From: Candidatus Woykebacteria bacterium
GTDB lineage: Bacteria > Patescibacteriota > Microgenomatia > Woykebacterales > RBG-16-39-9b
Length of the DNA stretch: 64,000 nucleotides
NCBI GenBank assembly: GCA_040876265.1
Contig: JBBDPN010000001.1
Location: forward strand, 118,208 to 182,207
Direction: 5' to 3'
The translations under genes and the position numbers were made by a program. The notes under the pieces were generated by a model. The model saw only the letters and a list, made by a program, of their open reading frames with translations. It had not been told where the DNA came from and made no database searches. Below, one piece after another: positions 4,655 through 58,940 of this stretch (position 1 is its first letter; each line of letters begins with the position of its first letter).

Positions 4655-5803
4655 ATGAAAATAATGCTCAAAAAGTATAAAAATCAGGTATTTATTATTG
4701 GCGGTTTAGTAGCCGTTTTTTTGCTGGCGGTGATTGTGGGTACGGCTATTGGAGTTTCGTACCCAAATTGGTCAAAAAACCTTTCTTTTCTCCCCGACTT
4801 TTTGAAACCGGCTTCAGGTGTTGAAGAAGTCACTCAAAACGGTGAAAAAGTTATTCGTACAGTAGAGGAGTCGGCTGTTATTGACGTGGCTGACAAGGCC
4901 TCACCAGCCGTTGTTTCAATCGTAGCTTCGCAGGCAACCCTTGATCCGGCTCAAGGTGTTCAAACAGATCAGCAAGGTATCGGGACTGGGTTTATTGTTC
5001 GTAAAGATGGAGTGATCTTGACCGCCTCTCACGTTGTAGATGATGATAGCATCAGCTATAAAGTTGTAACCCGCGATGAAAAACAATTCGACGTTATACA
5101 GATAGATAAAGACCCTTCTGTCGATTTCGCTATTTTAAAAATAAAAGCAGGGGGTTTACCGATCTTAAAATTAGCTGACTCGGATTCTGTAAGAGTTGGT
5201 CAGAAAGTTGTGGCCATCGGTAATGCTCTTGGTCGTTTTAGCAACACCGTGACAGTGGGAGTGGTGTCCGGTGTTGGCCGTGGGGTAGCTGCTTCAAATG
5301 CGTCTGGTATCTCTCAAGGAACCTTAGAAAATGTCATCCAGACAGACGCTGCGCTCAATCCGGGAAACAGTGGTGGTCCACTGCTGGATCTTTCTGCCAA
5401 CGTAATCGGGATAAATTTTGCCACTACTGTTGGCGCGGAGAACATCGGCTTTGTCATACCAGCCAATAGTGTAGAGCCAGTCCTTCAGCAATATCTAGCA
5501 GAGGGTAGAATAATTCGCCCGTTCCTAGGTATTTCTTATGTAATTGTTGACGAGACAACTTCAGTGCTGCAAGGTATTCCTCAAGGTGTCTTTGTCCAAA
5601 GAGTGCTGGCTGGCACACCTGCAGCAAAAGCAGGTTTGGAAGCAGGAGACGTGATAACAAAGTTTGGTGGGCAAAAGTTGGATGAAAATCAAACGCTTTC
5701 TAGAGTGATTGGTAAATTCAAGGTGGGTCAAACAATTGAGTTGGAAGTAAACCGAGATGGGAAGACTGTTAAACTGAAGACAACACTTACAGAAGCCCCA
5801 TGA
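4655..5803 (+). CDS. htrA: HtrA/DegP-family periplasmic serine protease with a C-terminal PDZ domain
   Basis: N-terminal TM helix. Trypsin-like motifs (TASHVV; DAALNPGNSGGPLLD) and a PDZ segment (GLEAGDVITKFGG). Confidence 0.85.
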   Translation: MKIMLKKYKNQVFIIGGLVAVFLLAVIVGTAIGVSYPNWSKNLSFLPDFLKPASGVEEVTQNGEKVIRTVEESAVIDVADKASPAVVSIVASQATLDPAQGVQTDQQGIGTGFIVRKDGVILTASHVVDDDSISYKVVTRDEKQFDVIQIDKDPSVDFAILKIKAGGLPILKLADSDSVRVGQKVVAIGNALGRFSNTVTVGVVSGVGRGVAASNASGISQGTLENVIQTDAALNPGNSGGPLLDLSANVIGINFATTVGAENIGFVIPANSVEPVLQQYLAEGRIIRPFLGISYVIVDETTSVLQGIPQGVFVQRVLAGTPAAKAGLEAGDVITKFGGQKLDENQTLSRVIGKFKVGQTIELEVNRDGKTVKLKTTLTEAP

Positions 5804-43279: not shown

Positions 43280-44869
43280 TCAAATAGAAATAATGTACCC
43301 TTCATTCGGTTTTAATTTAAACCGTGATAGATCTACCACCTTACCTATTTCGTCACCCAATGAAGTATCGCAGATAATTTTAGGGTTTGGGTATTCTATA
43401 GAAATACTGCAGTTCTTATTAGAAAAATTTAATAATACTAATACCTTTTCCTTTCCGTCCCTTCGAATATAGGCGAAAACATCTTTACCCGGCATTGGTA
43501 ATGGAACGTAGGATCCCCTTCTAAGTGCCTCGTTCTTGTTGCGAAGACTGATGAGCTTCTTATAAAGTGAAAGCATTGAGTGCCGGTTTTTACTTTGGTT
43601 TCTTACATTTACTTTACGATAGTTTCCAGCAACTGGTAACCAAGGCTCGACTCTAGAAAAACCGGCATATTTACTACTGTCCCATTGCATAGGCGTCCTT
43701 ACAGGGTCACGCCCACCCTCTAAGCCTTCTTGCCCCGCAGAATTTCTATCGGTAATTTTTTCTTTTGGTATACGGACGTTTTTTAACCCTAACTCATCAC
43801 CATAATAAATAAAAGGAATCCCCCTCAACGTGAGTAAAAGCATAGCCGCCACTCGTGCAGCGCTTTGATCTAGTCTGCTAGATACTCTAGCGCGATCATG
43901 GTTGCTCAGAACATAGTTTGGGATGTGATGAGGTTTTAATGATCGTTCGTAAGTGTCGATAAATTTTTTAAAGCTTTTTGCATTCCAAGGAAGAAGTAAT
44001 AAATTAAGATTCAATGGCGCACAACGCGATGAATTATAATTTTTATAATAATCTATCATTCCTGGAATATCGGTGTAGTCTTCTGTTACCATAAATTTAT
44101 CTTCATAACTTTCTAGTAACTTACAAAACCTTATCAGTATTTTAAATCTTTCGGGCTGATTCATACTGTAAACATGATTCAGTTTCTTATACGGATCATC
44201 TACACCATCTTGGTAGTTATAATTAGGTAGGTCATCTCTAAACAAGGCATCTTTAACGAGCATATGGACCGCGTCAACTCTAAACCCGTCCACTCCTATA
44301 TCCATCCAAAACTTTAAGATTTTTGTCATCTCCTTCAGAATTGCTGGATTTCTCCAATTTAAGTCTGGTTGTTCTTTATAAAAAGAATGAAGATAGTATT
44401 GTCCCGTTCGCTTATCATATTCCCAAGCAGATCCACCGAATACACTTAACCAATTATTCGGAGGGGAGCCGTCTTCTTTAGGGTCCGCCCAAATATAATA
44501 ATCCCGTTTAGGATTATATTTTGAGGACTTAGATTCTAAAAACCATTTATGTTGTTCAGAGGTATGATTTGGAACAAAATCAAGAAGCACCTTTATATTT
44601 CTTTTATGCGCCTCCCCTATTAACTTGTTAAACTTGCTTAAGTTACCAAAAACAGGATCAATTTCTAAATAATCTGCTACATCATAACCCCCGTCAAGCA
44701 TAGGCGATTTAAAAATAGGCGAAAGCCAAATGGCGCCAACGTTTAGACAGTTTTCGGCATTATTACTTAAATAATCAAGTTTTTGGATAAGACCGGCTAA
44801 ATCTCCCACCCCATCGTTGTTAGAATCTTTAAAACTTTTTGGGTAAATTTGATATACTACCATAGTCAA
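43280..44869 (-). CDS. GH13 alpha-glucosidase (oligo-1,6-glucosidase / trehalose-6-phosphate hydrolase-like)
   Basis: GH13 regions I (VLLDFVPNHTS) and II (DGFRVDAVHML). N-terminus typical of oligo-1,6-glucosidases (YQIYPKSFKDSNNDGVGD). Confidence 0.85.
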   Translation of the reverse strand: MTMVVYQIYPKSFKDSNNDGVGDLAGLIQKLDYLSNNAENCLNVGAIWLSPIFKSPMLDGGYDVADYLEIDPVFGNLSKFNKLIGEAHKRNIKVLLDFVPNHTSEQHKWFLESKSSKYNPKRDYYIWADPKEDGSPPNNWLSVFGGSAWEYDKRTGQYYLHSFYKEQPDLNWRNPAILKEMTKILKFWMDIGVDGFRVDAVHMLVKDALFRDDLPNYNYQDGVDDPYKKLNHVYSMNQPERFKILIRFCKLLESYEDKFMVTEDYTDIPGMIDYYKNYNSSRCAPLNLNLLLLPWNAKSFKKFIDTYERSLKPHHIPNYVLSNHDRARVSSRLDQSAARVAAMLLLTLRGIPFIYYGDELGLKNVRIPKEKITDRNSAGQEGLEGGRDPVRTPMQWDSSKYAGFSRVEPWLPVAGNYRKVNVRNQSKNRHSMLSLYKKLISLRNKNEALRRGSYVPLPMPGKDVFAYIRRDGKEKVLVLLNFSNKNCSISIEYPNPKIICDTSLGDEIGKVVDLSRFKLKPNEGYIISI

Positions 44870-44988
44870 GAGATGAATTTAATAATTGTGTTAAGCAACT
44901 TATGTTCGAGAAGTCCATAAATGCAGATTGTACTTCAAAAACGCTTCCTTATAATATTGGGTTTACTTGCTAAAATTATTATAACAAA

Positions 44989-46137
44989 ATGAGAATTGCA
45001 GTGATTGGATCAGTTTCAAAACCAACTCGTTATGAGACTCCCGGTGGGGTAGAAGTTTGGACCTCCCTATTTTTGTTAGAGTCTATAAAAAGAGGACATG
45101 TATTTGATTTATACTCCCTTAGGGATTCGCTACAAATACCAAATAAAATTAATCTAATCACAGTGTCTAACAAGGGAGTTGACGAGATTAAAAACTCTAA
45201 ATCGTTTGGGGAAAAACACCAACGAGAATATGATAGCGCCTCCTTACTAGGTATATTCTTTTCAAGAATAACGCTACTTATCAAAGAAAACGAACAGAGC
45301 TATGATATTGTTATTAACAGTTCGGGAAGCCCGTTATTAACTGTAAACTGGGATTTTTATAAAAAACCACTTTTAACGATTGCACATTTTGCGGCCTTTG
45401 AACCATTTGTAAGTTATTTTGAATATTTTCCTTTACCCAACAATATTTTTTACGCGTTTCCAAGTCTTCGTGAGTCTGAACTAGCTAAGGAAATACCTGG
45501 AAAGCAAAAATTTCATATTCCACACGGGGTAGACGTTGAAAAAATTACATTTAGGGAAAATGGAGCTAGAAACATACTTTGGTTTGGGCGGCTAGATCCA
45601 ACAATGCCTAAGGGTCTTATTGAAGCAATTCATATTTCCAATAAAATGGAGATCCCTATAGATATATACACACACGTTGAAGATATTAGTTATTTTAAGA
45701 GAACCGTTAAGCCACTTTTAACAAAATATACTAATTTTCAAATTAATACACCGCGTAATGATTTTTTTAATAAGGCTAAACTTTTCCTTTTACCATTAGG
45801 TTGGGAAGAGCCTTTTGGCTTAACGATACTTGAATCTATGGTTAGTGGAACACCAGTAGTTGCTTATGCGAAAGGAGCTGTTCCAGAGATAGTGAGGGAC
45901 GGTGAAACTGGTTTTATCGTAAACTCTTCAGACGATGATTTAAGAGGTGACTGGATTATTAAAAAAACTGGAATCGAGGGTTTGTGTGAAGCAGTTAAAA
46001 AGATCTATAAGATGCCAGACTCTCAGTACGCAGCAATGAGAAAAGCTTGCAGAAAGAATGCAGAAACCAACTTTACCACCGGTAAAATGGTAGATTCATA
46101 TGAAACTGCTTACCGAAAGATATTATCAGGTCATTAG
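44989..46137 (+). CDS. glycosyltransferase family 4 (GT-B, group 1)
   Basis: EPFGLTILESMVSGTPVV...GETGFIV (E-x7-E region). Confidence 0.7.
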   Translation: MRIAVIGSVSKPTRYETPGGVEVWTSLFLLESIKRGHVFDLYSLRDSLQIPNKINLITVSNKGVDEIKNSKSFGEKHQREYDSASLLGIFFSRITLLIKENEQSYDIVINSSGSPLLTVNWDFYKKPLLTIAHFAAFEPFVSYFEYFPLPNNIFYAFPSLRESELAKEIPGKQKFHIPHGVDVEKITFRENGARNILWFGRLDPTMPKGLIEAIHISNKMEIPIDIYTHVEDISYFKRTVKPLLTKYTNFQINTPRNDFFNKAKLFLLPLGWEEPFGLTILESMVSGTPVVAYAKGAVPEIVRDGETGFIVNSSDDDLRGDWIIKKTGIEGLCEAVKKIYKMPDSQYAAMRKACRKNAETNFTTGKMVDSYETAYRKILSGH

Positions 46138-46183
46138 GAGATCTATATTCAATTGAGTTTGTATTTAACTGCTGCCCCTTTAT

Positions 46184-47488
46184 TTATGTGGTGAAGTCTA
46201 GTATTGTGGCGGCGGTCCAAGCCTGTTCGTGGGCCCCGTAATGGCCTCCGTGTTCCACGTACTCTTTTATCTTCCCATCAAAAGCACAATAAAGCTCTAG
46301 CATTGTACCAAACTGACTAACCGCGTTGATCACGGAACTTTTTATTTGCTGGGCCTCTTTTTTATAGCCAAAATTTTCAAACCCCTCTGCGATAAGACCG
46401 TTATCAAAAGGCCAAACAGAACCATTGTGGTAGCTGCAGGGATCAAAAAACTTTGATTCTGTACTCAGTGTACGGATTCCTGCGCCCTCAACAAAAAGAT
46501 CTGGATTTAGTAATCTATGTACAACGTCTGGCATATACTGATCCTCAATTATAGACTCTGGCTTGCCGTTCTCTATAATAGACGCCCACATACAATGACC
46601 AGGGTTGCTTCTTACCGAAAGTATGTGTGCTATTTGGCCAAAGATGGCATAAACAAAGTAGTACAAATCCTTGCTGCGCATGAGAAACTTATTATTAAAC
46701 TCCTTTTTTAATTGATCGGCTCTACTTTTTAGGGTCTCTGCTCTGGTTTTATCTATATTTTCGTAGATCCTTGACCAGAGTCTCAGAGCCTTCCAGTAAT
46801 AACTTTGAACTTCAACCAAAGCGATTGGTTCTTTTGGAGGCTCTCCATAGATGAGAATAGAGTCAATGCTATCCATCCAGCCTTGATTTACCAAACCTCC
46901 GTGATCTTCTGGTCTCTGAAGTTGATATTCGAGAAAAAGTTTGTTGCCACTTTTTGGACTAAATTTTGTTAAATATTCAAAGGCTTTTTCGGCGGCAGGC
47001 AAGATATCCTCAAACAAATTCTTGTCGTTCGTAGCGTTATAATATTCCGCTGCCAGAATGAGGAAAAGAGGGGTAGCATCAACAGAGTCGTAGTTTCTTA
47101 TTGTTTTATTTGGGTAAACATACCAGTTTATTGGTTTTTTTGTGAGATAATCATACCCTTTCTCGCGGTATTCATGAACCATTTTTCCGGGTTTCTCCCC
47201 ACTTTTCAGATTTATTTCTTTTCCCCGCAACCTGATTGCTGTCCGGATAGTGTGTCGAATGATCCGTAGGAATATCTCGTCTGGTTTTTTCTCGTAGACT
47301 CTTAGTAATTTCAGACAGGTGATCATCGAGTCCCGTCCAAAATAAGCAGCGTAGCGGTCGTCCTTTCCAGAGGCGTTTATGCCAAGCGGGGTTTCTAATT
47401 CTAAGATAGCTTTATAAGCTAGATCACGTAGGGATTTTAGACCTTGTCTTTGTAGTGGTTTGTGTTGTTGATGCAGCTTTTTTGCCAT
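46184..47488 (-). CDS. (alpha/alpha)6-barrel glycoside hydrolase, GDE_C / amylo-alpha-1,6-glucosidase-like
   Basis: FGRDSMI, NQGWMD and YHNGSVWPFDN motifs as in the GDE_C family. The start overlaps the upstream GT4 gene by 65 nt; an internal alternative start is possible. Confidence 0.55.
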   Translation of the reverse strand: MAKKLHQQHKPLQRQGLKSLRDLAYKAILELETPLGINASGKDDRYAAYFGRDSMITCLKLLRVYEKKPDEIFLRIIRHTIRTAIRLRGKEINLKSGEKPGKMVHEYREKGYDYLTKKPINWYVYPNKTIRNYDSVDATPLFLILAAEYYNATNDKNLFEDILPAAEKAFEYLTKFSPKSGNKLFLEYQLQRPEDHGGLVNQGWMDSIDSILIYGEPPKEPIALVEVQSYYWKALRLWSRIYENIDKTRAETLKSRADQLKKEFNNKFLMRSKDLYYFVYAIFGQIAHILSVRSNPGHCMWASIIENGKPESIIEDQYMPDVVHRLLNPDLFVEGAGIRTLSTESKFFDPCSYHNGSVWPFDNGLIAEGFENFGYKKEAQQIKSSVINAVSQFGTMLELYCAFDGKIKEYVEHGGHYGAHEQAWTAATILDFTT

Positions 47489-48500
47489 TTACTATTTCAT
47501 AATACAATTTTTCGTACTCATCTACCATCCTCTTTAAATTAAAGGTTTCTTTAACATGGTTTCTGCAGTCTCTCCTTGAAATTGATCGAATTTTTTTGAT
47601 TGCTTTTAGCATATCTTTTTCTTTTTCGACAATAAAGCCAGTTTTTCTACTTACAATAATCTCTGGCACCGAGCCTTTATTAAACGCTACAACCGGGCAA
47701 CCACAGGCCATTGCCTCGATCATTGTAAGTCCAAAGGGTTCACTCCAAGTGATGGGGTGCAGTAAACACAGGGCCTCCTTCATCAATTTGTTTCTTTCCG
47801 CCTCGTCAACTTCTCCGATCCATCTTATTTTTCCATTTGAGAGTCTGGGTGCGACGTACTGGTTGAAATAAGCGACGTCGAATTTATCCAATTTAGCGGC
47901 TATGATAAGCTCCATTTTCAGAGCCATGGCAATATCCATCGCGATATGTGTCCCCTTCTCCAAAGAAATTCTACCAACAAAAAGTAAATAATTTTTTGGC
48001 CGAGCGCTGAAAGGAAATTTTTCGATCGGAATACCATGGTGAATTGTTTTCCGCCAATTTAATTTCGGTCCTCCTTTTCGCTGCGAGTCAGAGATAGAAA
48101 CAAACTTTAGGTTTTTGTATTCTTCATAGATGTTTCTGTTTTCCAAATTGAAGGCGCCGTGGAAAGTAGTAATAGTAGGTATTGGTGAGAAATACGCTGC
48201 GGAGAAGCTATAATAATCGAGATGATTGTGGATCACATCAAACTGGGTAGCCCCCTTGTACGCTCTAGCGACGTTTAGTAGTGTGAAAGCCGCTTCATCG
48301 GCGGTGTGCATTGCTCTAAGTGAGTGTGAGGATCCAGGTATTAATTTTGCAGATGTCTCTGAATCCCCAGAAGCAAAAAGAGTTACATCGTGGCCTCTCT
48401 TAACGAGTTCTTCAGTTAGATAATAAACAATGCGCTCAGTTCCACCGTACCGTCTTGGCGGTACCCTTTCAATAAGAGGAGCTATTTGTGCAATTTTCAT
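47424..48500 (-). CDS. glycosyltransferase family 4 (GT-B, group 1)
   Basis: N-terminus MKIAQIAPLIERVPPRRYGGTE...GHDVTLFASGD and C-terminus EPFGLTMIEAMACGCPVV...KTGFIV. Confidence 0.8.
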   Translation of the reverse strand: MKIAQIAPLIERVPPRRYGGTERIVYYLTEELVKRGHDVTLFASGDSETSAKLIPGSSHSLRAMHTADEAAFTLLNVARAYKGATQFDVIHNHLDYYSFSAAYFSPIPTITTFHGAFNLENRNIYEEYKNLKFVSISDSQRKGGPKLNWRKTIHHGIPIEKFPFSARPKNYLLFVGRISLEKGTHIAMDIAMALKMELIIAAKLDKFDVAYFNQYVAPRLSNGKIRWIGEVDEAERNKLMKEALCLLHPITWSEPFGLTMIEAMACGCPVVAFNKGSVPEIIVSRKTGFIVEKEKDMLKAIKKIRSISRRDCRNHVKETFNLKRMVDEYEKLYYEIVNGKKAASTTQTTTKTRSKIPT

Positions 48501-49427: not shown

Positions 49428-50246
49428 TTAAACCTTCTCGAGTAGTCGTACACCGAAAACACGTTCGATTATTTTCAGAGCAACTCCTACTGCGATTAGA
49501 AGCAACGGCCAGTTTGGCAAGTTGCCACCAGTTACTGGTAGTCCTTCAGCGGCGGCTAAGACTTGTCCTGGTCTTGGAGCCGGACCTGGGAGTACGGCAG
49601 TTGGTTGATCGCCGGGATCCATAGGTTCACCGCCCCTGTCAGGTAGCGGACCGCCTATTACACTGTGATTTACATCGTTATCGATATTTATTTCGAAGTT
49701 GATGTCCCCAGTTTTGATTGATGCATCTCCAGTGTTCTTATTTGCTTCATTTTCACCCGTGTTAAGGTCTGCTCCTATATTGTTTTGCAAATCCACATTG
49801 TTATTCACATTAATATTCAGGTTATTCTTGATCCTAGTTTCGGCTTTGTTTACTGAGTCTGCACCAGTGTTCTCATTGCTGGATGTTAGGAATGGACCGC
49901 AACAAATAAGGTTGGTGTTGGTATTGAACACGTCAGCACCATTAGCCTTGTTTGTTATATTTACATGGCCGCTTATATCCCCTGTTTGAATAGACGCATC
50001 ACCAGTGTTTTTATTAGCTTCATTCTTTCCCGTGTTCGCTTTTACGCTTATGTTGTTAGTTATATTTGCGTTGTTGGTACTATTAATTGTTGTGTTGTTT
50101 TCTACAGAAACTTCAGCCTTGTTTACTGAGTCTGCACCGGTGTTGGTGTTACTAGCAGTACTAGCGAGAGCTGCAGTACCGATAAGAAGTACGCTGGCAC
50201 CTGCAGCGGCAGAAGATGTTATAACTTTTGTCCAGATGTCTTTCAT
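49428..50246 (-). CDS. secreted Asn/Thr-rich repeat protein with a C-terminal LPxTG-type sortase anchor
   Basis: Signal peptide. Two copies of the NTGADSxNKAE...NTGxNEANKNTGDASIxTGD module. C-terminal LPVTGG, then a hydrophobic helix, then a KIIERVFGVR tail. Confidence 0.6.
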   Translation of the reverse strand: MKDIWTKVITSSAAAGASVLLIGTAALASTASNTNTGADSVNKAEVSVENNTTINSTNNANITNNISVKANTGKNEANKNTGDASIQTGDISGHVNITNKANGADVFNTNTNLICCGPFLTSSNENTGADSVNKAETRIKNNLNINVNNNVDLQNNIGADLNTGENEANKNTGDASIKTGDINFEINIDNDVNHSVIGGPLPDRGGEPMDPGDQPTAVLPGPAPRPGQVLAAAEGLPVTGGNLPNWPLLLIAVGVALKIIERVFGVRLLEKV

Positions 50247-50252
50247 GGTTAC

Positions 50253-52511
50253 TTAACGTTTCACCCCCTTAAATAATGCCCTCCTTGTCAATGAAAATAC
50301 TATTCCAAGTGCCACCGGATACATCAAGTTCATGAGATTGAAATCATCAAACAGCCCTCTCTCAGAGTTGAAGCGGGCTATTGGCGGAGCTTGTCCATCG
50401 TTATCCGTACCTAGAACCAGTGTTTGTACATCTGCATCTCCAGGTGATTTAGCTGTGTTTGATCCACCGTTTGTTTCAAGGCTAGGTCCACTAGCTGCTC
50501 CAAATGCAAGTAGCGTCTGATTTGCTCCGTTTATAGTAGAGCTGGTCGGTCTGGAAGAACTTTTACTGCTACTTGCGGATTTGCTGAGAGGCTCGTTGAT
50601 ATTTACACCAGACAGGGTTTTTTCGCCGTTCACGATGTCGCCGTTAAACTGACCAAAAATATTCACAATTGTCAGTAAAAATCTGCTGCCAATGAAGGTA
50701 TTGTTTAGAAAGTTGGCGATGTTGGCAGCTATATTTACGTCACCGGTTTTTATCGAACCGCTTCCTGTATTGTATGAAGCACTATTATCACCAGTGTTCG
50801 CATTTAGGTTTACGTTGTTTACGAGCGTTCCAGTGTTGTTGACAGTGATATCAGTTTCGTTCTCGACATTATTTGCTGCTTCATTGAAACTATCTGCACC
50901 AGTGGTATCATTGGCCGCTACTATACTTCCGTCTGGGTTTACAGTGAAAGTGAAGAATGGTGAGTAGACGCTGCCCTGCTCCCCTCCGAAGAGCTGTCCT
51001 GTCCAACTACCCATGTTGTTTATAAGTACCATCCAGATATCGCCACCGCTGCCAACTGCCGAGGTGTTGGCTACAGTAGAGACGTTTAAGTTTGCATCCA
51101 CATCACCAGTGTCGATGTAACCACCACCGGTGTTTTTACTGGCGTCATTACCACCAGTGTTGCCGTTTAAATTTACATTGTTCTGTACGTCGGCAAGGTT
51201 GTTGAGGTCGATACTGGTATTGTTGCTTGTTGAATTGTTTGCTGTATTTTCTGAACCCGCGCCGGTAGTTGAATTACCAGCTAGTAAGTCTAAACCAGAA
51301 CCATTGGTACCTGTTCCACCTTCATTTATACCTTTTAGAACGATATCTCCGTCCAGGGTGCCAAAAATGTTCACCACTCCCAGCAGCAGTTCTCCGCCAC
51401 CGCCAAGAAACACATTATTGAGGAAGTTTATAAGGTTAAAAGCAATGTTGGCATCCCCGGTCGTAACGCTTCCGTTGCCAGTATTTTTATCAGCAGTATT
51501 GTTTCCTGTATTTGAGGTGAGGTCATAATTATTTATTAAGTTTCCGAAATTATCGACCAATATAGTGTTTGAGTTGTTCGAAGTGTTAGTTGCGCTGTTT
51601 AAAGAATCTTCTCCAGTAGCATTGTTTCCAGCAAAGGCACCACCGCCCGGAATATAAGTGGGGGTTATTTTGCTGTAATCAATGACGATATCGCCGGTCT
51701 GATCATCCATTACGTTGAAGACAGAGGCGCCAACGTTTACGTTGTTAGCTGTATTTACGGCCGTTAATATTACGTCAGAGTCACCGGTGGTAACTATCCC
51801 GTTCCCTGTGTTTTTATCAGCGCTATTGTTACCTGTGTTGCTATCAAAATCAACATAGTTGTAAAGATCGGCGTCATTATCTATACTCGTGCCCGTTTCA
51901 TTGTTTGTATTATTGTCGGCCATATTAAATGATCCAGAGCCTGTCTTATCATTTGCCGCTTCTAGATCCTTTATACTTACAGTTCCACAACTGCCACCGC
52001 TTCCACATGAGCCCACCGAACCAATGCTAATAGTGTTAGCGGTTGTTTCGACGTTGCCTGCTAAGCTAGCGTTTCCAGTATTGACTAGACCGTTCCCAGT
52101 ATTTTTATTAGCACTGTTGTCGCCGGTATTACTATCTCCCTCAACCAGATTATCTATTTTAGCTGTATTATTTATATCGGTGTTACTCGTATTATTAGTG
52201 TTCGTACCAGCTTCGTTGTAAGAATCTGCGCCGGTATTGCTGTTTATTGCTGCCGCGGCAGCTGCAGCCTCAGCGGCGGCCTTTTTAGCCTCCTGACCAG
52301 CCTTCCATTGCTGGTACCAATTATTTGGATCTTTCCAATTTACTTCTTGAGTTGTGCTAGTTGTCTGGGTTGACGGAGTGGCTTCTTGGGCCATCACTAC
52401 GCTAGCCGGAAGCACAAAAGTATAAGAAAATGCAACAAGGACACTTATAAATATGCGTAATATTTTATTTCTTAAGTTAGTTCTCATCTTCTCGTTATTC
52501 TTTAAGGGCAT
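50253..52511 (-). CDS. large secreted Asn/Thr/Gly-rich repeat protein, paralogous to its neighbours
   Basis: Signal peptide. Many degenerate copies of the same module (SNTGDNSANKNTGNGxVTTGDA). C-terminal hydrophobic segment plus basic tail, with no LPxTG. Confidence 0.6.
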   Translation of the reverse strand: MPLKNNEKMRTNLRNKILRIFISVLVAFSYTFVLPASVVMAQEATPSTQTTSTTQEVNWKDPNNWYQQWKAGQEAKKAAAEAAAAAAAINSNTGADSYNEAGTNTNNTSNTDINNTAKIDNLVEGDSNTGDNSANKNTGNGLVNTGNASLAGNVETTANTISIGSVGSCGSGGSCGTVSIKDLEAANDKTGSGSFNMADNNTNNETGTSIDNDADLYNYVDFDSNTGNNSADKNTGNGIVTTGDSDVILTAVNTANNVNVGASVFNVMDDQTGDIVIDYSKITPTYIPGGGAFAGNNATGEDSLNSATNTSNNSNTILVDNFGNLINNYDLTSNTGNNTADKNTGNGSVTTGDANIAFNLINFLNNVFLGGGGELLLGVVNIFGTLDGDIVLKGINEGGTGTNGSGLDLLAGNSTTGAGSENTANNSTSNNTSIDLNNLADVQNNVNLNGNTGGNDASKNTGGGYIDTGDVDANLNVSTVANTSAVGSGGDIWMVLINNMGSWTGQLFGGEQGSVYSPFFTFTVNPDGSIVAANDTTGADSFNEAANNVENETDITVNNTGTLVNNVNLNANTGDNSASYNTGSGSIKTGDVNIAANIANFLNNTFIGSRFLLTIVNIFGQFNGDIVNGEKTLSGVNINEPLSKSASSSKSSSRPTSSTINGANQTLLAFGAASGPSLETNGGSNTAKSPGDADVQTLVLGTDNDGQAPPIARFNSERGLFDDFNLMNLMYPVALGIVFSLTRRALFKGVKR

Positions 52512-52606
52512 TTAGAAATTCACATATTTTGAACTTTTAAATACCCTTCTGGGTTCCCCCGCCCTCTGTAAAGAGGGCGGGGTCCACCAGAAAAAGCAAT
52601 TACGCT

Positions 52607-53737
52607 TTAAACCTCCTCACCGTTGAGGATGTTTTCGTTGACTTCGGTAGTTACTTCTACCTCAACGTCAGTGTCACCAGTGTCGATATCGTCACCGGTG
52701 TTTTTGTTGGTTTCGTTCTTACCAGTGTTAGCTTTGACTTCGCCGTTGTTGTCAACGTCTGAGTTGTTGTTTTGGTTGACGTCTAGGTCGTTTTTGACCT
52801 CTGCTTCTGCTTTGTTGTAGGAATCGTTTCCAGTTTTTTCGTTGGAGCTTTCCAATTCAACATCGCAGCAAACGTCTACATCAGCTTCGTTGGAGTTAGC
52901 TTTGTTTTCGATAACTACTTCAACGTCGGCATCACCAGTATCGACTTCACCTTCACCGGTGTTTTTGTTAGCTTCGTTGTAGCCGGTGTTTGCCCAAACA
53001 TCAACGTTGTTGTCAATATCAGCGTTGTTGTTTTGGTTGATATCGGTGTAGTTCTTAATCTCAACCTCAGCTTCGTTGTAGGAGTCTGCTCCAGTGGTAT
53101 CGTTGGAAGCGCTTACGCTACCTCCACTGCCACCACCAACGCTGGCTTTATTCTCGTTTACCATATTAGTAATGCTGACGACTACGTCGGCATCACCAGT
53201 ATCAACACTACCGCCACCGGTATTTTTGTTGGCTTCGTTGCCACCGGTGTTGGCTTTTACGCTAACGTTATTGTCTACGTCAGCGTTGTTGTTTTGGTTA
53301 AGGTCCAATTTGTTCTTAACCTCAACTTCAGCCTTGTTTTTGGAGTCAGCACCTGTTTTGTTGTTAGAAGCTGACAAGTCACCTTCACAACCACAATTTT
53401 CCACACTGACAACATTGGAGTTGGCTTGGTTACTGATTGAAACAGTAGCGTTTGCATCTCCTGTCTTTACGGAACCTTCACCAGTATTTTTGTTGGCTTC
53501 GTTTTTACCAGTGTTGGATTTTACGCTGATGTTGTTAGTGATGGATGCGTTGTTGTTTTGGTTGACGTTTACGTAGGTTTCTGATTCCACTTCAGCTTTG
53601 TTGTAGGAATCAGCCCCAGTAGTGTCGTTGCTTGCAGTTGCTGCCATGGCCGGAGCAATTGCAAAGGCCAAAGATGCAGCACCGCTCAGAGCTGCGTGGA
53701 TTAGTTTTGTCTTTGTCATGTTTTCACCCCCTTTCAT
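52607..53737 (-). CDS. secreted repeat protein with four tandem modules of about 88 aa
   Basis: Signal peptide. Four near-identical units (TGADSYNKAEVE..NQNNNADxDNNVSVKANTGxNEANKNTGxGSVDTGDADV), each ending in a Cys pair (CGCEGD; CCDVELE). Confidence 0.6.
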   Translation of the reverse strand: MKGGENMTKTKLIHAALSGAASLAFAIAPAMAATASNDTTGADSYNKAEVESETYVNVNQNNNASITNNISVKSNTGKNEANKNTGEGSVKTGDANATVSISNQANSNVVSVENCGCEGDLSASNNKTGADSKNKAEVEVKNKLDLNQNNNADVDNNVSVKANTGGNEANKNTGGGSVDTGDADVVVSITNMVNENKASVGGGSGGSVSASNDTTGADSYNEAEVEIKNYTDINQNNNADIDNNVDVWANTGYNEANKNTGEGEVDTGDADVEVVIENKANSNEADVDVCCDVELESSNEKTGNDSYNKAEAEVKNDLDVNQNNNSDVDNNGEVKANTGKNETNKNTGDDIDTGDTDVEVEVTTEVNENILNGEEV

Positions 53738-54174: not shown

Positions 54175-54762
54175 TTAGAAAGTAATCACCAAAGTTTCCT
54201 TTGGGTCGCTGACATCGCCAACTTCTAGCTTAAATTTCTTCTCGCTGGGAAAAACAACAAACCCAACGTTGCTTTTTTTTGTTGATTCTGGCCTAATCTG
54301 GACGGACCCTTGATGAACTGAAGGCGCAAATTTACTACCGTCCTCTCTTACAAGCCTGAAAAGGTCTACTGGAAACGCATAAAGCGCTACCGGGTAGGGA
54401 TTTTCTACCTCCATATTGATAACTAAAAATACTTTACCCTCTATTGGGTTAGCTCTTTTTCCCTGAACAAGTATATAGTCGCCAAATTCGGCGTTTGTAA
54501 TGCGGAGCTTAAAATTACCATCGGTCCTTAGTCTTTCTTCGGTTCTGGCAACTACCTCATAGGATTTATTTATCTCGATAACTTTGCTGCCATTTATCCC
54601 ACTAGGTTTTATGAAGACAAATAGTAAAACAATCAGAGCTAATACCGCACCCGAACCTAAAAGGATTTTTTTTATGTTCTTATTTAGCAGCTGTCTATAA
54701 GCAATAAATTTGTTCAACATAAAGCGCCGCCTATTATGCTTTATAGTCTTATAGTTTGTCAA
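54175..54762 (-). CDS. hypothetical secreted protein (N-terminal TM anchor), last gene of the Clp-like operon
   Basis: Overlaps the upstream ATPase gene by 4 nt. No motifs. Confidence 0.45.
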   Translation of the reverse strand: MTNYKTIKHNRRRFMLNKFIAYRQLLNKNIKKILLGSGAVLALIVLLFVFIKPSGINGSKVIEINKSYEVVARTEERLRTDGNFKLRITNAEFGDYILVQGKRANPIEGKVFLVINMEVENPYPVALYAFPVDLFRLVREDGSKFAPSVHQGSVQIRPESTKKSNVGFVVFPSEKKFKLEVGDVSDPKETLVITF

Positions 54763-57212
54763 GTGGAAAATAAAAGTTGGTTATTTTGTAGGGAAATGTT
54801 AACCGCCGAGCCGCGCCTTAGTTCTCCGGATAGTATTTTTTGGGCTATGTGACCCTCAATATTGTCTGCCAAAAATCGCTTTAACGGCCTTGCCCCGTAC
54901 GTTGGGTCGAAACCAGATTTGGCGATCCAAGCAGTAGCTTGCGGCTCGATTGTAAGAACCACATCCTGTTTTTTGAGGCGTCCAGCGAGCTCCTTTATCA
55001 AAAGGCCAACTACTTCTACTATTTCGCTTTCGGTTAGGGGTTTGTAAACAATAATATCGTCAAATCGGTTTAGAAATTCGGGCTTAAAAACCCCCTCGCG
55101 TTGCAGCTTCTCTAAAAGCAATTTTTTTAAATCTTCTATCGGGACATTTTGCTGGACGGATTCCCGGATGTACTCGGCTCCAGCGTTTGAAGTGGCGATG
55201 ATTATGGTATTGGAAAAAACTATTTTTCGACCAGTTACATCCTCCAAGACGCCGTCATCCAAAACCGGTAAAAAGGCTTCCTGTATTTTTGGCTCTGCTT
55301 TCTCCATCTCATCAAGCAGCACTAGTGAGTATGGGTTGCGTCTTATTTTTTCAGTAAAATCGCCGCCCTCTTCATATTGGCCAGTGCCTGGAGGTGCGCC
55401 GATTAGTCGATTTATTGCCTGCTCTGATTGGTACTCACTCATATCAATCCGGATTATTTTTTCCTCATCGCCAAAGTAAAGAGATGCTAACGCTTTGGCA
55501 GTTTCGGTTTTTCCAACACCAGTGGGTCCCAAAAATAAGAAGCTGCCGATTGGTTCACTCCCACTCCTTTCGATACTTCGCGCCCGTCTTAGAGCATTGG
55601 ATATAGCTTTGACCGCTTCTTCTTGGTCAACTATTCTTTGGTGGACCACCTTTTCTAGGTGGATCAGCTTTTCCGCTTCCTCTCCACCGGCGAGTTTAAC
55701 CGGCATTTTGGTTTTTTGACTAATCACGTCCTCGAGGTCGGAAACTTCTAACAAGTGTTTTTTCTGCAAGGAGATGGCAGCAGCTGCTTCGTCAAGTAAA
55801 TCTATTGCTTTTCCAGGTAAAACTCGATCCACAAAATATCTTTCCGAAAGTTCAACGACTCGTTGGATTGCTTTGTAAGTGATAATTACCTTGTTTCTTT
55901 TTTCTATTGCTGGTACCGCCTGCTCCAAAATGCGGATTGCAACATCTCCAGTCGGTTCTTCCAGATTAACGGTCTCAAACACAGATGCGAACGTGCCTTG
56001 GGGTTCAATAAAGCGGCGGTAAGCTTCTCTTGTACTGGTAGCAATTACTTGGAGACGACCAGAACCCAGAGAGTTGATTAAGTGACCGGTTATGTTTACA
56101 CCTGTACCAGAGCCGCCGGCGATGTTTTCAATACCTGGCATATACAAAATTACATTGCCAGCGTGGGTTAGTTCGTTTAAAAGATTTTGCAATCTTTGCT
56201 CTAGTTCCCCCGGTGCAGCTCCAGCCAAAAGAGAAGTGACGTCGATTTCGATAAACCGTTTGTATTCCAGAGCCGGTGGTAGTAACCCACTCATGGATCG
56301 CACGGCCAGGCCGCGTACTATCGTGTTTTTACCGATCCCGGGGGGTCCCAAAAGTAGCACATTCTTCTTGACACTGCGGGCTAAAACTTCCTGTACTTGA
56401 GCTATTTCAGCATCTTTACCAACCAGTGTTTCATGTTCTCGGCTCTTGCGAATATCCTTTGATAAATCTACCGAGTAGCTTTCGGTCTCTGGTGTCCAAC
56501 CACCAAGCCAAGATTCACTTATCCCCGGACCTAAACTATCAACCGGCTTCTCCCAGAAGTGACTTTTGTCAGCGTCAAAGTAGTCTCGCGCCCAGAAAAC
56601 GATGTTGAGTAGATCGTTATCCTTCACCTCTTTGTTAAAAAGTAAATTTTTTAGTTCGGGCGTTTGCGATATCAAAGCCAGCAAAATATCCAGCTTGTCT
56701 AGGTAATTTCTGGATTCTTTTTCGGCCCAGGCTCGAGCGTAAGAAAGGGTTTCGTCAAAGTTTATTTTCCGCCCAGTCAGCTGTGGGTCTTGAAACAGCT
56801 TGTTGAGCTCTTCCATTGAAATATCTGCCTTCTCAATCACAAAAAGGACTTTTTTGTTTCTCAGTAAAGGGAGAAGAAGTCGGTGCAAATCCTGTCTGTT
56901 GCCGGCATTGGAAAGTAATTTTGCCGCCTCCAGCGAGATACTGTTAGCCAAATTTTGACCAGACGTAAAAGGTGTGGGCCTTTCCTTCAAAATTTTCTCG
57001 CGATAAAAGATCTCAAAAACAAAAAATATGATTGACACAGCTAGTACCAGATAAAAGATTTTATTACCCCCGGTGCTGCTGGTGAGTATCAGCATCAGTA
57101 GAAGGGCTGCGGCGAGAAGAACGCGGACGGCTACTACCAAAATAGTAGAGTACAGACTAGAAAAAGCAGCCGCGCCAAATATTCTGGATGTGTTAGGCGA
57201 AAATTGCTCCAT
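54759..57212 (-). CDS. membrane-anchored Clp/Hsp100-family AAA+ ATPase (ClpB/ClpC-like) with a degenerate first nucleotide-binding domain
   Basis: Two N-terminal TM helices, then Clp_N-like repeats. D1 carries GPPGIGKNT (Lys kept, Thr changed to Asn) and the Walker B position reads VILYMPGIEN, with no DE pair. D2 is canonical: GPTGVGKTETAKALA, LLDEMEKA, ATSN. Confidence 0.75.
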   Translation of the reverse strand: MEQFSPNTSRIFGAAAFSSLYSTILVVAVRVLLAAALLLMLILTSSTGGNKIFYLVLAVSIIFFVFEIFYREKILKERPTPFTSGQNLANSISLEAAKLLSNAGNRQDLHRLLLPLLRNKKVLFVIEKADISMEELNKLFQDPQLTGRKINFDETLSYARAWAEKESRNYLDKLDILLALISQTPELKNLLFNKEVKDNDLLNIVFWARDYFDADKSHFWEKPVDSLGPGISESWLGGWTPETESYSVDLSKDIRKSREHETLVGKDAEIAQVQEVLARSVKKNVLLLGPPGIGKNTIVRGLAVRSMSGLLPPALEYKRFIEIDVTSLLAGAAPGELEQRLQNLLNELTHAGNVILYMPGIENIAGGSGTGVNITGHLINSLGSGRLQVIATSTREAYRRFIEPQGTFASVFETVNLEEPTGDVAIRILEQAVPAIEKRNKVIITYKAIQRVVELSERYFVDRVLPGKAIDLLDEAAAAISLQKKHLLEVSDLEDVISQKTKMPVKLAGGEEAEKLIHLEKVVHQRIVDQEEAVKAISNALRRARSIERSGSEPIGSFLFLGPTGVGKTETAKALASLYFGDEEKIIRIDMSEYQSEQAINRLIGAPPGTGQYEEGGDFTEKIRRNPYSLVLLDEMEKAEPKIQEAFLPVLDDGVLEDVTGRKIVFSNTIIIATSNAGAEYIRESVQQNVPIEDLKKLLLEKLQREGVFKPEFLNRFDDIIVYKPLTESEIVEVVGLLIKELAGRLKKQDVVLTIEPQATAWIAKSGFDPTYGARPLKRFLADNIEGHIAQKILSGELRRGSAVNISLQNNQLLFST

Positions 57213-57552
57213 ATATTGAAAAAATTGCCAGTAGCGGCAACACCATCCAAATAATAAAAATCCCCGTCTCGATTATTAAAATCAATCCAAGAATTACGAT
57301 ATCAAATAAAATTATTATACTTTTGAAAAAGGCACCAATAAATATCGCTGTGCGCACCAGTCCCTCACGGTATTCATTTTTCCAGGGCCGGAAAAAAGTT
57401 GTGAAAAGCTCCTTAAAAGAAAAAAGGTGAACAAATGCAGCAAATACCCAACGTAAAATTTTTATCAAAGTTATCGGAGCTTCCAAAAACCACCAGCGGA
57501 GGAATTCAATTGGAAGTTTGGCCAAATATAGAGAGACGGCAGGCGCGTTCAT
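57193..57552 (-). CDS. hypothetical small polytopic membrane protein, first gene of the Clp-like operon
   Basis: Three to four TM helices. Overlaps the ATPase start by 20 nt. Confidence 0.4.
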   Translation of the reverse strand: MNAPAVSLYLAKLPIEFLRWWFLEAPITLIKILRWVFAAFVHLFSFKELFTTFFRPWKNEYREGLVRTAIFIGAFFKSIIILFDIVILGLILIIETGIFIIWMVLPLLAIFSIYGAIFA

Positions 57553-57659
57553 AATTTTGAGTATAGCGAAAAATTACATCTGGCTTCAGCTAGTTATAAT
57601 TTCGAACCTCAGCGAGATATAATTTAATTAACTCTAGTTTAACAAAATTGAGGTTTTTG

Positions 57660-58940
57660 TTAAACCAACTCGTCGTAGAGACGGAGGTGGTCAAGGAGGA
57701 GGCGGGTTATCAGGAATTTGTGGCGGACACGTTCTCTTCCTTTCTCCCCCATTTCTTTTTCCCTATCGGGATTTCTTATTAAATAAACTATTTTTTCAGC
57801 GGTCTCAGCTGCAGTGGTAACTAAAAACCCTGTTTCCCCGTCAACTATTTGCTCGACTATTCCGCCAGCTTTACCACCGATTACTGGCTTTCCCTTCCAC
57901 ATCCCTTCACTTACGGTGAGACCAAAGCCTTCGCGGGTGGATTTTTGAATTATTGCGTCGCTAGCCACTTGAAAAGCGTTTACAGCCATATCCCCCACTC
58001 CGTCGAGATTGCTGAGAATAAAAATTCCTGGATCGCTTTTAGCGTATTTTTTCAAATCCACGATGATATCGGTTGCTTCTGGATCGTCTGGAGCAAAAGC
58101 ACCTATGAGAGCTAGCTGTAAATCTGGTATTTCTTTTTTGGCGGCACGGTATGCATCCATCACCCCCCATGGATCTTTCCAGGGGTCAAAGCGTGAAATT
58201 TGAGAGACTAGTGGTTTATCTGGCTTTAACCCAAATCTATCTACTACTTGGTCGGCTGCAAATTTGTCCAAGGGATTATTTTTTTGGCTGAGAGGATCGA
58301 TAGCTGGAGCAATTATTCGAGCCTTTTCGTAATCTAAATCCGGCCCCAGATACTTTCTCATTGTAAAGATGTAGCGATCGTATTTTTGAATGTATGGCAA
58401 CAGGAAGCGCCAGGTAAAAAGATTTGGATGCGATGTATCTATATGACAGCGCCAGATGGCTGGGTGGAGATTTTTGTGAAACTCGCTTATTGCAACAAAC
58501 TGAGGATCGTGAATTACCCATACATCGGAGCGTTTATCGTTGAAGAACTCTGCTACCTCCTCGTTTGTCTTTAGAAATTCGTCTTTTTGAACGTCAGTGA
58601 GTTCCCCCTTTTTCCCCTGCAGCTGGTTGTGGATTTCTTTGGTGATCCGAAAAAAATTGTTATCTTTTCTGGATACAAACCAGTCGGCATCCAAACCGAG
58701 CCCTTTGAGAAGAGGAACAAGGGAGCGTAGTATTTCGGCAACTCCCCCACCCGAGGGTGAAGTGTTTAGGTGGATGACGCGGATACCTTTGAGCTTTTTA
58801 GCTAGTTTTTCGATCTCAGCGTAGGTCTGCCCTGGAGCAACATCTTTATAATTTGCAATAGGAATTGGATCAAAAGGGACTTCTCGTATCATGGCAGGCG
58901 TACCTTTCGCTTTTGTTTGGAAACCTTTGCTTTGAACCAA
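57660..58940 (-). CDS. treT: trehalose glycosyltransferring synthase TreT-like (GT4)
   Basis: Collinear similarity to archaeal/bacterial TreT: HLNTSPSGGGVAEILRSLVPLL, WRCHIDTS, VSQISRFDPWKDP, REGFGLTVSEGMWKGKPVIGG...VDGETGFLV. Confidence 0.75.
   Translation of the reverse strand: MVQSKGFQTKAKGTPAMIREVPFDPIPIANYKDVAPGQTYAEIEKLAKKLKGIRVIHLNTSPSGGGVAEILRSLVPLLKGLGLDADWFVSRKDNNFFRITKEIHNQLQGKKGELTDVQKDEFLKTNEEVAEFFNDKRSDVWVIHDPQFVAISEFHKNLHPAIWRCHIDTSHPNLFTWRFLLPYIQKYDRYIFTMRKYLGPDLDYEKARIIAPAIDPLSQKNNPLDKFAADQVVDRFGLKPDKPLVSQISRFDPWKDPWGVMDAYRAAKKEIPDLQLALIGAFAPDDPEATDIIVDLKKYAKSDPGIFILSNLDGVGDMAVNAFQVASDAIIQKSTREGFGLTVSEGMWKGKPVIGGKAGGIVEQIVDGETGFLVTTAAETAEKIVYLIRNPDREKEMGEKGRERVRHKFLITRLLLDHLRLYDELV

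Follow-up and report, generated by a model that had tools for sequence, protein, structure and literature searches.

Here we describe a two-gene locus, encoded in a 64,000-nucleotide (nt) stretch of a Candidatus Woykebacteria genome (hereafter the window), that pairs a membrane-anchored ATPase of the Hsp100/Clp family with a small polytopic membrane protein. The ATPase gene (54759–57212, (−); supported by the open reading frame (ORF), Pfam, NCBIfam and alignment) encodes 817 amino acids (aa) and carries N-terminal transmembrane (TM) helices; we refer to its product as TM-Clp. The small gene (57193–57552, (−); called as an ORF) encodes 119 aa. TM-Clp is a membrane-anchored paralogue of the Hsp100/Clp double-ring AAA+ ATPases that is specific to the candidate phyla radiation (CPR), and it lies outside ClpB, ClpA/ClpC and ClpV as those families are defined. 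In the reading that we favour, and to which we give about an even chance, it is a membrane-associated, ClpP-independent proteostasis or remodelling ATPase that works without canonical tyrosine-driven threading and is paired with the small membrane protein. The evidence for this reading comes from the two AAA+ rings, from the N-terminal membrane module and from the way in which the two genes are kept together.

The rings of TM-Clp were compared residue by residue with those of Bacillus subtilis ClpC, for which structures have been solved, and with 120 database relatives. The first AAA+ module (D1; residues ~260–480, 55773–56435, (−); delimited by the ClpC and family alignments and by an AlphaFold2 (AF2) model) is degenerate. 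Its Walker A motif reads GPPGIGKN (residues 289–296, 56325–56348) for the canonical GEPGVGKT, its pore loop reads AGAA-PGELE for AGTKYRGEFE and has no tyrosine, its Walker B motif reads ILYMPGIE (residues 355–362; ILYMPG at 56133–56150) for ILFIDELH, and its arginine-finger segment reads FASVFET for ALERRFQ (ERRF to ASVF). The Walker B strand of D1 comprises residues 354–358 in the AF2 model and is followed directly by P359–G360; this strand, together with the ClpC alignment, places P359–G360 at the positions of the Walker B Asp–Glu pair. The initial annotation, which was made from the sequence alone, had described a degenerate D1 with GKN in its P-loop and no Walker B pair. These motifs were read correctly, with PG replacing DE in the D1 alignment, and the decay was understated, as both arginine fingers and the KYR of the pore loop are also lost.

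The second module (D2, with the D2-small domain; residues 520–817, 54762–55655, (−); from alignments) presents a different picture. It keeps the Walker A motif GPTGVGKT (residues 562–569), the Walker B motif LLDE within LLDEMEKA (residues 632–639), sensor 1 (TSNAG), the arginine finger (FLNRFD) and sensor 2 (GARPLKR), and is by these motifs predicted to be ATPase-competent. The D2 pore loop, canonically GSPPGYVGYDEGG, reads GAPPGTGQYEEGG in TM-Clp: GYVG has become GTGQ in PPGTGQYEEGG (55362–55400), and the tyrosine is gone. The earlier description of D2 as canonical thus holds for the ATP hydrolysis motifs and fails for the pore loop.

The same pattern was seen across the family. When 1.84 billion representatives were searched with a profile built on the TM hairpin and the N-domain, which together make up the N-terminal module, 477 clusters at 50% identity were matched, of which 220 had E ≤ 1e-10. 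Motifs were counted on the 78 full-length representatives, at the 50% identity level, that were open to inspection. N-terminal TM segments and the D2 GKT and DE are present in all 78, and the D1 arginine pair is kept in none of them. The D1 DE is kept in 9 and the D1 GK[ST] in 15; the D1 pore loop contains any aromatic residue in 3, and the D2 pore loop contains G[YFW] in 2. Among TM-Clp genes adjoining the small-protein gene in species-level genomes, the D2 ATPase motifs are invariant (61 of 61), and the D1 Walker B Asp, the RR pair, the pore Tyr and the Tyr of D2 GYVG are absent from every one (61 of 61). The D2 pore loop is partly deleted in distant members. By contrast with this pattern, 14 soluble Clp paralogues, encoded 3–5 kb from the pair in related Levybacteria genomes and taken as a control, have GKT, FIDE, ERRF and GYVG together with a Pfam-detectable Clp_N domain.

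Different members of the family have T, S, N, E, K, D or R after the D1 GK, and in some the GK itself is replaced by GR. The sequences thus suggest that even the binding of nucleotide by D1 is under relaxed constraint, and the GKN in the window appears to be one state of that drift. It follows that only half of the earlier proposal of an ATP-binding, non-hydrolysing D1 can be retained: the hydrolysis residues are lost, and binding is uncertain. Likewise, a membrane-anchored Clp protein with a degenerate D1 is confirmed, and the term unfoldase is doubtful for it, because the substrate-gripping tyrosines of both rings are missing family-wide.

At the level of whole domains the Hsp100/Clp assignment made at the outset was borne out by Pfam and by Foldseek. 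Pfam places AAA (residues 285–381), AAA_lid_9 (423–519), AAA_2 (554–720; E = 7e-56) and ClpB_D2-small (726–806) on TM-Clp, all four above their cutoffs and in the class-I double-ring arrangement of Hsp100/Clp proteins. The AF2 model, built from a 43-sequence alignment (mean predicted local distance difference test score (pLDDT) 83.6; predicted template-modelling score (pTM) 0.74), has ClpC and ClpB as its best Foldseek matches (E = 3e-55), and the closest ClpC/ClpA matches are 31–40% identical to TM-Clp in sequence. Every curated NCBIfam Clp model scores TM-Clp far under its equivalog cutoff. The best of them, ClpB (TIGR03346), reaches 540.5 bits against a cutoff of 1232.1, and does so in two stretches; ClpA (TIGR02639), which aligns in one stretch, reaches 469.2 against 993.15, and ClpV/TssH (TIGR03345) reaches 421.7 against 884.95.

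Two elements by which Clp ATPases engage other proteins are also missing. The linker between D1 and D2 is 85 aa long in TM-Clp, compared with 145–208 aa in reference ClpC and ClpB, indicating that TM-Clp has no M-domain. The D2 loop that runs from sensor 1 to the arginine finger is 32 aa long and contains no [ILMV]G[FL] ClpP-docking tripeptide. This region is shortened to 32–33 aa family-wide and 58 of 60 members lack the tripeptide, the two regular-expression matches falling inside a helix; by alignment, a ClpP-docking loop, which had been considered for this protein, is absent from TM-Clp and from its family. No M41 protease domain was detected in TM-Clp by Pfam. TM-Clp is annotated publicly as an 'ATP-dependent Clp protease ATP-binding subunit' (ClpC), a label that is misleading for the family because the ClpP-docking element is absent. 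A role as an anti-phage defence ATPase was considered and rejected: PADLOC matches only D2, to the generic ClpB-like proteins DolB and PDC-M37B, and the two neighbouring proteins have no match.

The membrane anchor is a two-helix TM hairpin (residues 24–74, 56991–57143, (−); from hydropathy and AF2). Its hydrophobic helices span residues 24–47 and 50–74 in a hydropathy scan and are modelled by AF2 with a pLDDT of ~90, and a conserved amphipathic helix (residues 10–21) precedes them. In 43 full-length homologues of 40–69% identity the whole N-terminus (MEQFSPNxSRIFxAAxFxNLYSS ... FEIFYRxK) is conserved from Met1, so the TM segment is not a start-site artefact; this conservation and a recurrent 20-nt overlap with the small gene (below) rule out a mis-called start and show the two proposed N-terminal TM helices to be genuine. 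Tethering of a Clp ATPase to the membrane, which had been singled out as unusual, is thus real, and the TM segments in all 78 representatives make it a family trait. Two residues of the hairpin, R30 and E67, are invariant in the 43 homologues. They lie near its cytoplasmic ends (R30 in TM1, ~57123–57125; E67 in the FEIFY motif of TM2, ~57012–57014), and the small partner has an invariant lysine, K77, inside its own hydrophobic stretch. These three residues may make intramembrane or interfacial charge contacts.

The hairpin is followed by an all-alpha N-domain (residues 88–213, 56574–56951, (−); from hhalign and Foldseek). Pfam Clp_N (PF02861) was detected neither in full-length TM-Clp nor in the isolated N-domain. 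In hhalign, the domain matches canonical Clp_N with 87% probability (E = 4e-6), the two repeats being aligned in register. Residues 1–258 were also modelled on their own (pLDDT 82); when this model was compared with the PDB by Foldseek, the top 50 matches were all Clp/Hsp100 N-domains (ClpC1-NTD, ClpA-N, ClpC-N, HSP101-N, Hsp104-N and ClpB-N), with target TM-scores of 0.5–0.6 and weak E-values (0.03–0.3). The N-domain is thus modelled as a divergent Clp_N fold with a sequence signature under the Pfam threshold, and the Clp_N repeats first reported for this protein stand at the fold and profile–profile level but not for Pfam detection.

The 119-aa partner carries the motif WWFxEAP...FFxPWKNEYREG, followed by ~52 hydrophobic residues, and has no match in Pfam or NCBIfam; its 806 homologues, about 120 aa in length, are all labelled 'hypothetical'. 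Scanning one genome per species (GTDB) for the motif PW[KR][NA]E[YR]R[EK]G yielded 67 small-gene loci, from Woykebacteria, Levybacteria/Levyibacteriota, Microgenomates and the 'Patescibacteria group'. Some third-party labels on metagenome-assembled genomes among these loci, 'Gammaproteobacteria' and 'Nanoarchaeia' for example, are probably wrong, and one relative outside Microgenomates comes from Paceibacterota. The next gene is TM-Clp, mostly overlapping or abutting, in every one of the 67 loci with enough downstream sequence. In the window the two genes overlap by 20 nt (ATGGAGCAATTTTCGCCTAA), and the identical overlap is seen again in other genomes. In 7 loci the two proteins are encoded as one in-frame fusion, and when the 120 Clp relatives were searched with a small-protein profile, the matches were confined to the N-termini of six Clp proteins that form a more distant fused class. 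Gene fusion and invariant adjacency constitute strong evidence that the small protein and TM-Clp act together.

The conserved core consists of these two genes, and the third gene of the region (54175–54762, (−); 195 aa as an ORF), which encodes an extracytoplasmic membrane-anchored protein, belongs to an adjacent surface-repeat module. The initial annotation had described an operon of three overlapping genes; all three ORFs are present, and only the first two clearly overlap, as the 4-nt overlap between TM-Clp and the third gene hinges on an unlikely TTG start. The N-termini of third-gene homologues align from the equivalent of M15, and the start is probably the ATG at 54720, giving 181 aa. 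This ATG is preceded by a promoter-like TTGACA-18-CATAAT (54762–54733) and by a Shine–Dalgarno-like AGGCGG. In other genomes the homologues lie 100–280 nt downstream of the Clp stop codon. The third gene is found in no locus without the three repeat-protein genes, and in loci L009/L031, where the repeat module has moved upstream of the pair, it again heads the module. Homologue starts, a promoter-like site of its own and occurrence only with the repeat genes set it apart from the two-gene core; what relatives conserve is a two-gene unit and not a three-gene operon, the third gene travelling with the module. Its product is predicted to have one TM segment and a beta-rich domain, with a weak resemblance to Pfam DUF4352 (E = 5e-4, under the cutoff) as its sole match in Pfam and NCBIfam.

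How might such a protein work? TM-Clp would assemble as a hexamer beneath the cytoplasmic membrane and turn its N-domain/D1 face to the bilayer, since an anchor at the N-terminus obliges this face to point toward the membrane. D1 would serve as a structural, non-catalytic assembly ring, by analogy with D2 of NSF or D1 of Pex1/Pex6, and ATP hydrolysis by D2 would power conformational work, either on clients close to the membrane or on the small membrane partner. The machine would operate without ClpP, without M-domain coupling to DnaK and probably without processive tyrosine-mediated threading. A D1/N-domain face turned toward the membrane would suit the extraction or remodelling of membrane-proximal clients, not export. 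The cellular role would be membrane-associated proteostasis, as suggested by gene order in Levybacteria: ~40 Levybacteria-type loci read hrcA-grpE-dnaK-dnaJ-(variable inserts)-small gene-TM-Clp-nusA-infB-...-rpsO-pnp, all on one strand, and several place the start of the small gene tens of bases past dnaJ. This position after hrcA-grpE-dnaK-dnaJ favours proteostasis; of the two envelope roles initially suggested, quality control and export, the dnaK-operon context fits the former better.

Several observations weigh against this reading. Hexamer formation, orientation and non-threading action are each deduced from sequence. The adjacency to the dnaK operon is found in one related clade and may reflect shared ancestry rather than co-regulation. 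CIRCE, the HrcA operator, is absent from the window even with up to 3 mismatches allowed, so heat-shock regulation of the window's own copy is not supported, and the neighbours in Woykebacteria are glycosyltransferase and surface-repeat genes, with no chaperone genes. Some close homologues have an aromatic residue 3–4 residues past the lost Tyr of the D2 pore loop (EYEEGG, KFEEGG), which could contact substrate; conservation does not extend to this aromatic, and distant members have lost the loop. Finally, the positive-inside rule and the fusion architecture give conflicting topologies for the small partner. Its conserved loop is rich in K/R, which suggests that the loop is cytoplasmic; the fusions add one further TM helix before the cytoplasmic N-domain, which would place the C-terminus of the small protein outside.

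A more far-reaching proposal is that TM-Clp and its partner form an unrecognized class of membrane-embedded AAA+ machines, widespread in CPR bacteria, in which the ATP-driven movement of a D2 motor that has no substrate-gripping pore loops would be passed through a rigid pseudo-ATPase ring into a ring of ~30 TM helices and would act on membrane or envelope components without threading. We put this forward tentatively, as possible and on balance doubtful. At the conventional end lies an ordinary ClpC/ClpA-type unfoldase on a membrane tether, threading membrane and envelope proteins to ClpP in an FtsH-like form of quality control. The nearest sequence and structure matches (ClpC and ClpB), the public annotation as a Clp protease ATP-binding subunit, and an N-terminal anchor that, like the one in FtsH, would have the ring face the membrane with its entry side all speak for such an enzyme. 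With the ClpP-docking loop absent and its carrier loop shortened to 32–33 aa, the pore-loop tyrosines of both rings gone and the NCBIfam Clp equivalog scores far under their cutoffs, we consider it unlikely. Decay of a paralogue left without function after a ClpC/ClpB duplication would account for the loss of catalytic and pore residues and for the relaxed constraint on the D1 P-loop. It is the least probable of the explanations, and what the family conserves in effect refutes it: the reading frame is unbroken, the D2 motifs do not vary in the 78 representatives or in the 61 species-level loci, and conservation extends to the N-terminal motifs, the TM charges, the gene overlap and the gene fusions. 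Hardly more credible is a ClpV-like disassembly ATPase, or an export motor like HSP101 of the Plasmodium translocon of exported proteins (PTEX), serving a secretion apparatus. Clp-family ATPases are known in secretion (ClpV in the type VI secretion system (T6SS), HSP101 in PTEX), and VirD4/TrwB-like ATPases are encoded in the window. However, ClpV and HSP101 depend on active rings and on tyrosines in their pore loops, an anchor at the N-terminus would leave the side from which substrate exits pointing away from the membrane, the wrong polarity for export, and the TssH model falls short by the bit scores given above. No T6SS genes were found among the annotated neighbours in the window and in 67 related loci, and the ClpV-like role floated in the initial annotation found no support.

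The main rival to a membrane-associated proteostasis ATPase, improbable in our view and still to be taken seriously, is a dedicated assembly, export or anchoring factor for the surface-repeat proteins, with the DUF4352-like protein as extracytoplasmic adaptor; here TM-Clp might extract or remodel the signal or anchor segments of the repeat proteins at the membrane. The module (49428–53737, (−); from ORFs and related loci) comprises three paralogous genes encoding proteins of 376, 752 and 272 aa, which are Asn/Thr/Gly-rich, have signal peptides and belong to no Pfam family; their repeat unit is ~85 aa long (NTGADSxN...NTGxNxAxKNTGxGxVxTGDA). Two strong promoter-like sites (53983 and 53943) lie ahead of the first repeat gene. 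In related CPR genomes the module is kept with a DUF4352-like gene and often with a small DUF2292 gene; no DUF2292-like small ORF was found between the third gene and the first repeat gene in the window. In favour of an assembly factor, the module adjoins the pair in Woykebacteria-type loci and in two Levybacteria loci whose Clp is ~38% identical to that of the window, lying downstream in L001, L003, L005, L013, L014, L016, L017, L046 and L060 and, permuted, upstream in L009/L031. A sortase gene follows the module in L046 and its cluster homologue does so in L060, and the module may encode a sortase-handled surface fibre or layer. On the other side, most Levybacteria loci have no repeat module within 7–10 kb of the pair, and neither the more distant pair in L007 nor the fused form in L008 has one. 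Moreover, the repeat proteins have ordinary N-terminal signal peptides, the third gene appears to have its own promoter, and the adjacency could be ancestral gene order. The surface-repeat neighbourhood that was emphasized initially is thus conserved in several lineages and is at the same time lineage-restricted.

Comparison with known systems places TM-Clp between several of them. With ClpC/ClpA it shares two AAA+ modules, the D2-small domain and, at the level of fold and profile comparison, a Clp_N-type N-domain, and the lack of a long M-domain is a ClpA-like trait. It differs from them in its N-terminal hairpin, its obligate small membrane partner and its dead D1, and in lacking both the IGF/IGL/VGF ClpP loop and the pore-loop tyrosines. 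With ClpB/Hsp104 it shares ClpP independence and a strongly similar D2, together with a position near the dnaK operon in Levybacteria; unlike them, it is membrane-anchored, has a dead D1 and has no coiled-coil M-domain for DnaK coupling. ClpB has pore-loop tyrosines in both rings (KYRG, GYVG) and two active sites; TM-Clp has neither tyrosine, and of its two sites D2 alone keeps the ATPase motifs. FtsH likewise uses an N-terminal two-TM anchor to hold a cytoplasmic AAA+ ring at the membrane and has a proteostasis role; its ring is built from one classical AAA module, which has an aromatic pore loop, and an M41 protease is fused to it, whereas TM-Clp has two Clp-type modules.

Rings without hydrolysis residues and pore aromatics act as assembly rings in NSF (D2) and in Pex1/Pex6 (D1). 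These proteins share with TM-Clp the presence of one non-catalytic ring, and Pex1/Pex6 is held at the membrane through a membrane-protein anchor. In contrast to TM-Clp, they belong to the classical AAA clade, their active ring keeps aromatic pore loops and threads substrate, and they are not anchored by TM helices of their own. Torsins with LAP1/LULL1 are related to Clp D2, are membrane-associated, have no pore aromatics and need a membrane-protein cofactor; unlike TM-Clp they are single-ring, lumenal and eukaryotic, and their arginine finger comes from the cofactor, whereas the D2 finger of TM-Clp is intact. To our knowledge, torsins are the only Clp relatives without a pore aromatic. We found no precedent for the loss of the pore aromatic in a ring that, judged by its motifs, still hydrolyses ATP.

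Hand-over-hand threading of polypeptides by tyrosines in the pore loops has its textbook example in the Hsp100/Clp proteins. With an intact D2 ATPase and no gripping tyrosines, the TM-Clp family would show a second use of the Clp motor. The envelope biology and proteostasis of CPR/Patescibacteria are poorly understood, and the pair would give a role to two of their many core genes that are 'hypothetical' or generically annotated. ClpI of Actinomycetota is a bioinformatically defined additional class of double-ring Clp proteins with a variable N-domain, and some of its sub-classes have no ClpP loop (PMC10149685). It differs from TM-Clp in having intact ATPase modules and translocation motifs and an M-domain, and in being soluble; the paper that defines it makes no mention of transmembrane segments (PMC10149685). 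A full-text literature search returned no TM-anchored Clp/Hsp100 protein in CPR and no Hsp100 protein lacking both pore tyrosines, which is not proof of novelty.

The region upstream of the small gene contains a promoter-like site, TTAACA-16-TAAACT with a TG upstream (57636–57663, (−)), identified by consensus match only. By the same kind of match, related Woykebacteria-type loci repeatedly have TGnTAAACT-like elements in the region ahead of the small gene. In many related loci a −10-like element, TGnTA[AT]ACT, lies 8–20 nt ahead of the start codon, a proximity that suggests very short leaders. The window also has a leader of ~48 nt ahead of the small gene (57541–57640, (−); ATTATAACTAGC..GC.AGATGTAATTTTTCG..ACT.AAAATT-ATG), which is present in the 63%-identical locus L001 (~5560–5663) and is tandemly duplicated there. 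A hairpin in the 5′ leader was not supported, the fold being no better than that of shuffled sequence (z = −1.5). A perfect 11-nt inverted repeat, GTTTAACAAAA-N7-TTTTGTTAAAC (57637–57665), overlaps the −10-like TAAACT at the point where the small gene adjoins a trehalose-synthase-like glycosyltransferase gene; related loci do not conserve this repeat.

The soluble Hsp100 paralogue of Levybacteria, which was found in loci L025, L038, L042, L045, L046, L053, L058–L060, L066, L071 and L073–L075, is 850–920 aa long and is encoded between dnaJ and the TM-Clp pair, ~2.5–5 kb upstream of the small gene. Its ATPase and GYVG motifs are canonical, but it has a Pro/Gln-rich N-terminal extension, no M-domain (linker of 91 aa) and no ClpP tripeptide, and SHRGEF replaces KYRGEF in its D1 pore loop. 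Its gene is flanked by a type IV secretion system-pilin-like gene, two large genes without a Pfam match and a subtilase gene. No soluble Clp paralogue was found within the 64-kb window. Glycan-metabolism genes surround the TM-Clp region (43280–48500 and 57660–58940): an alpha-amylase, a GDE/MGH1-like glycoside hydrolase, two GT4 glycosyltransferases and a TreT-like trehalose synthase. Of these, the gene for the TreT-like enzyme keeps its place directly upstream of the pair in Woykebacteria-type loci. The two VirD4/TrwB/HerA-like coupling-protein ATPases of the window are encoded at 10674–13217 ((+); 847 aa) and 34633–37401 ((+); 922 aa).

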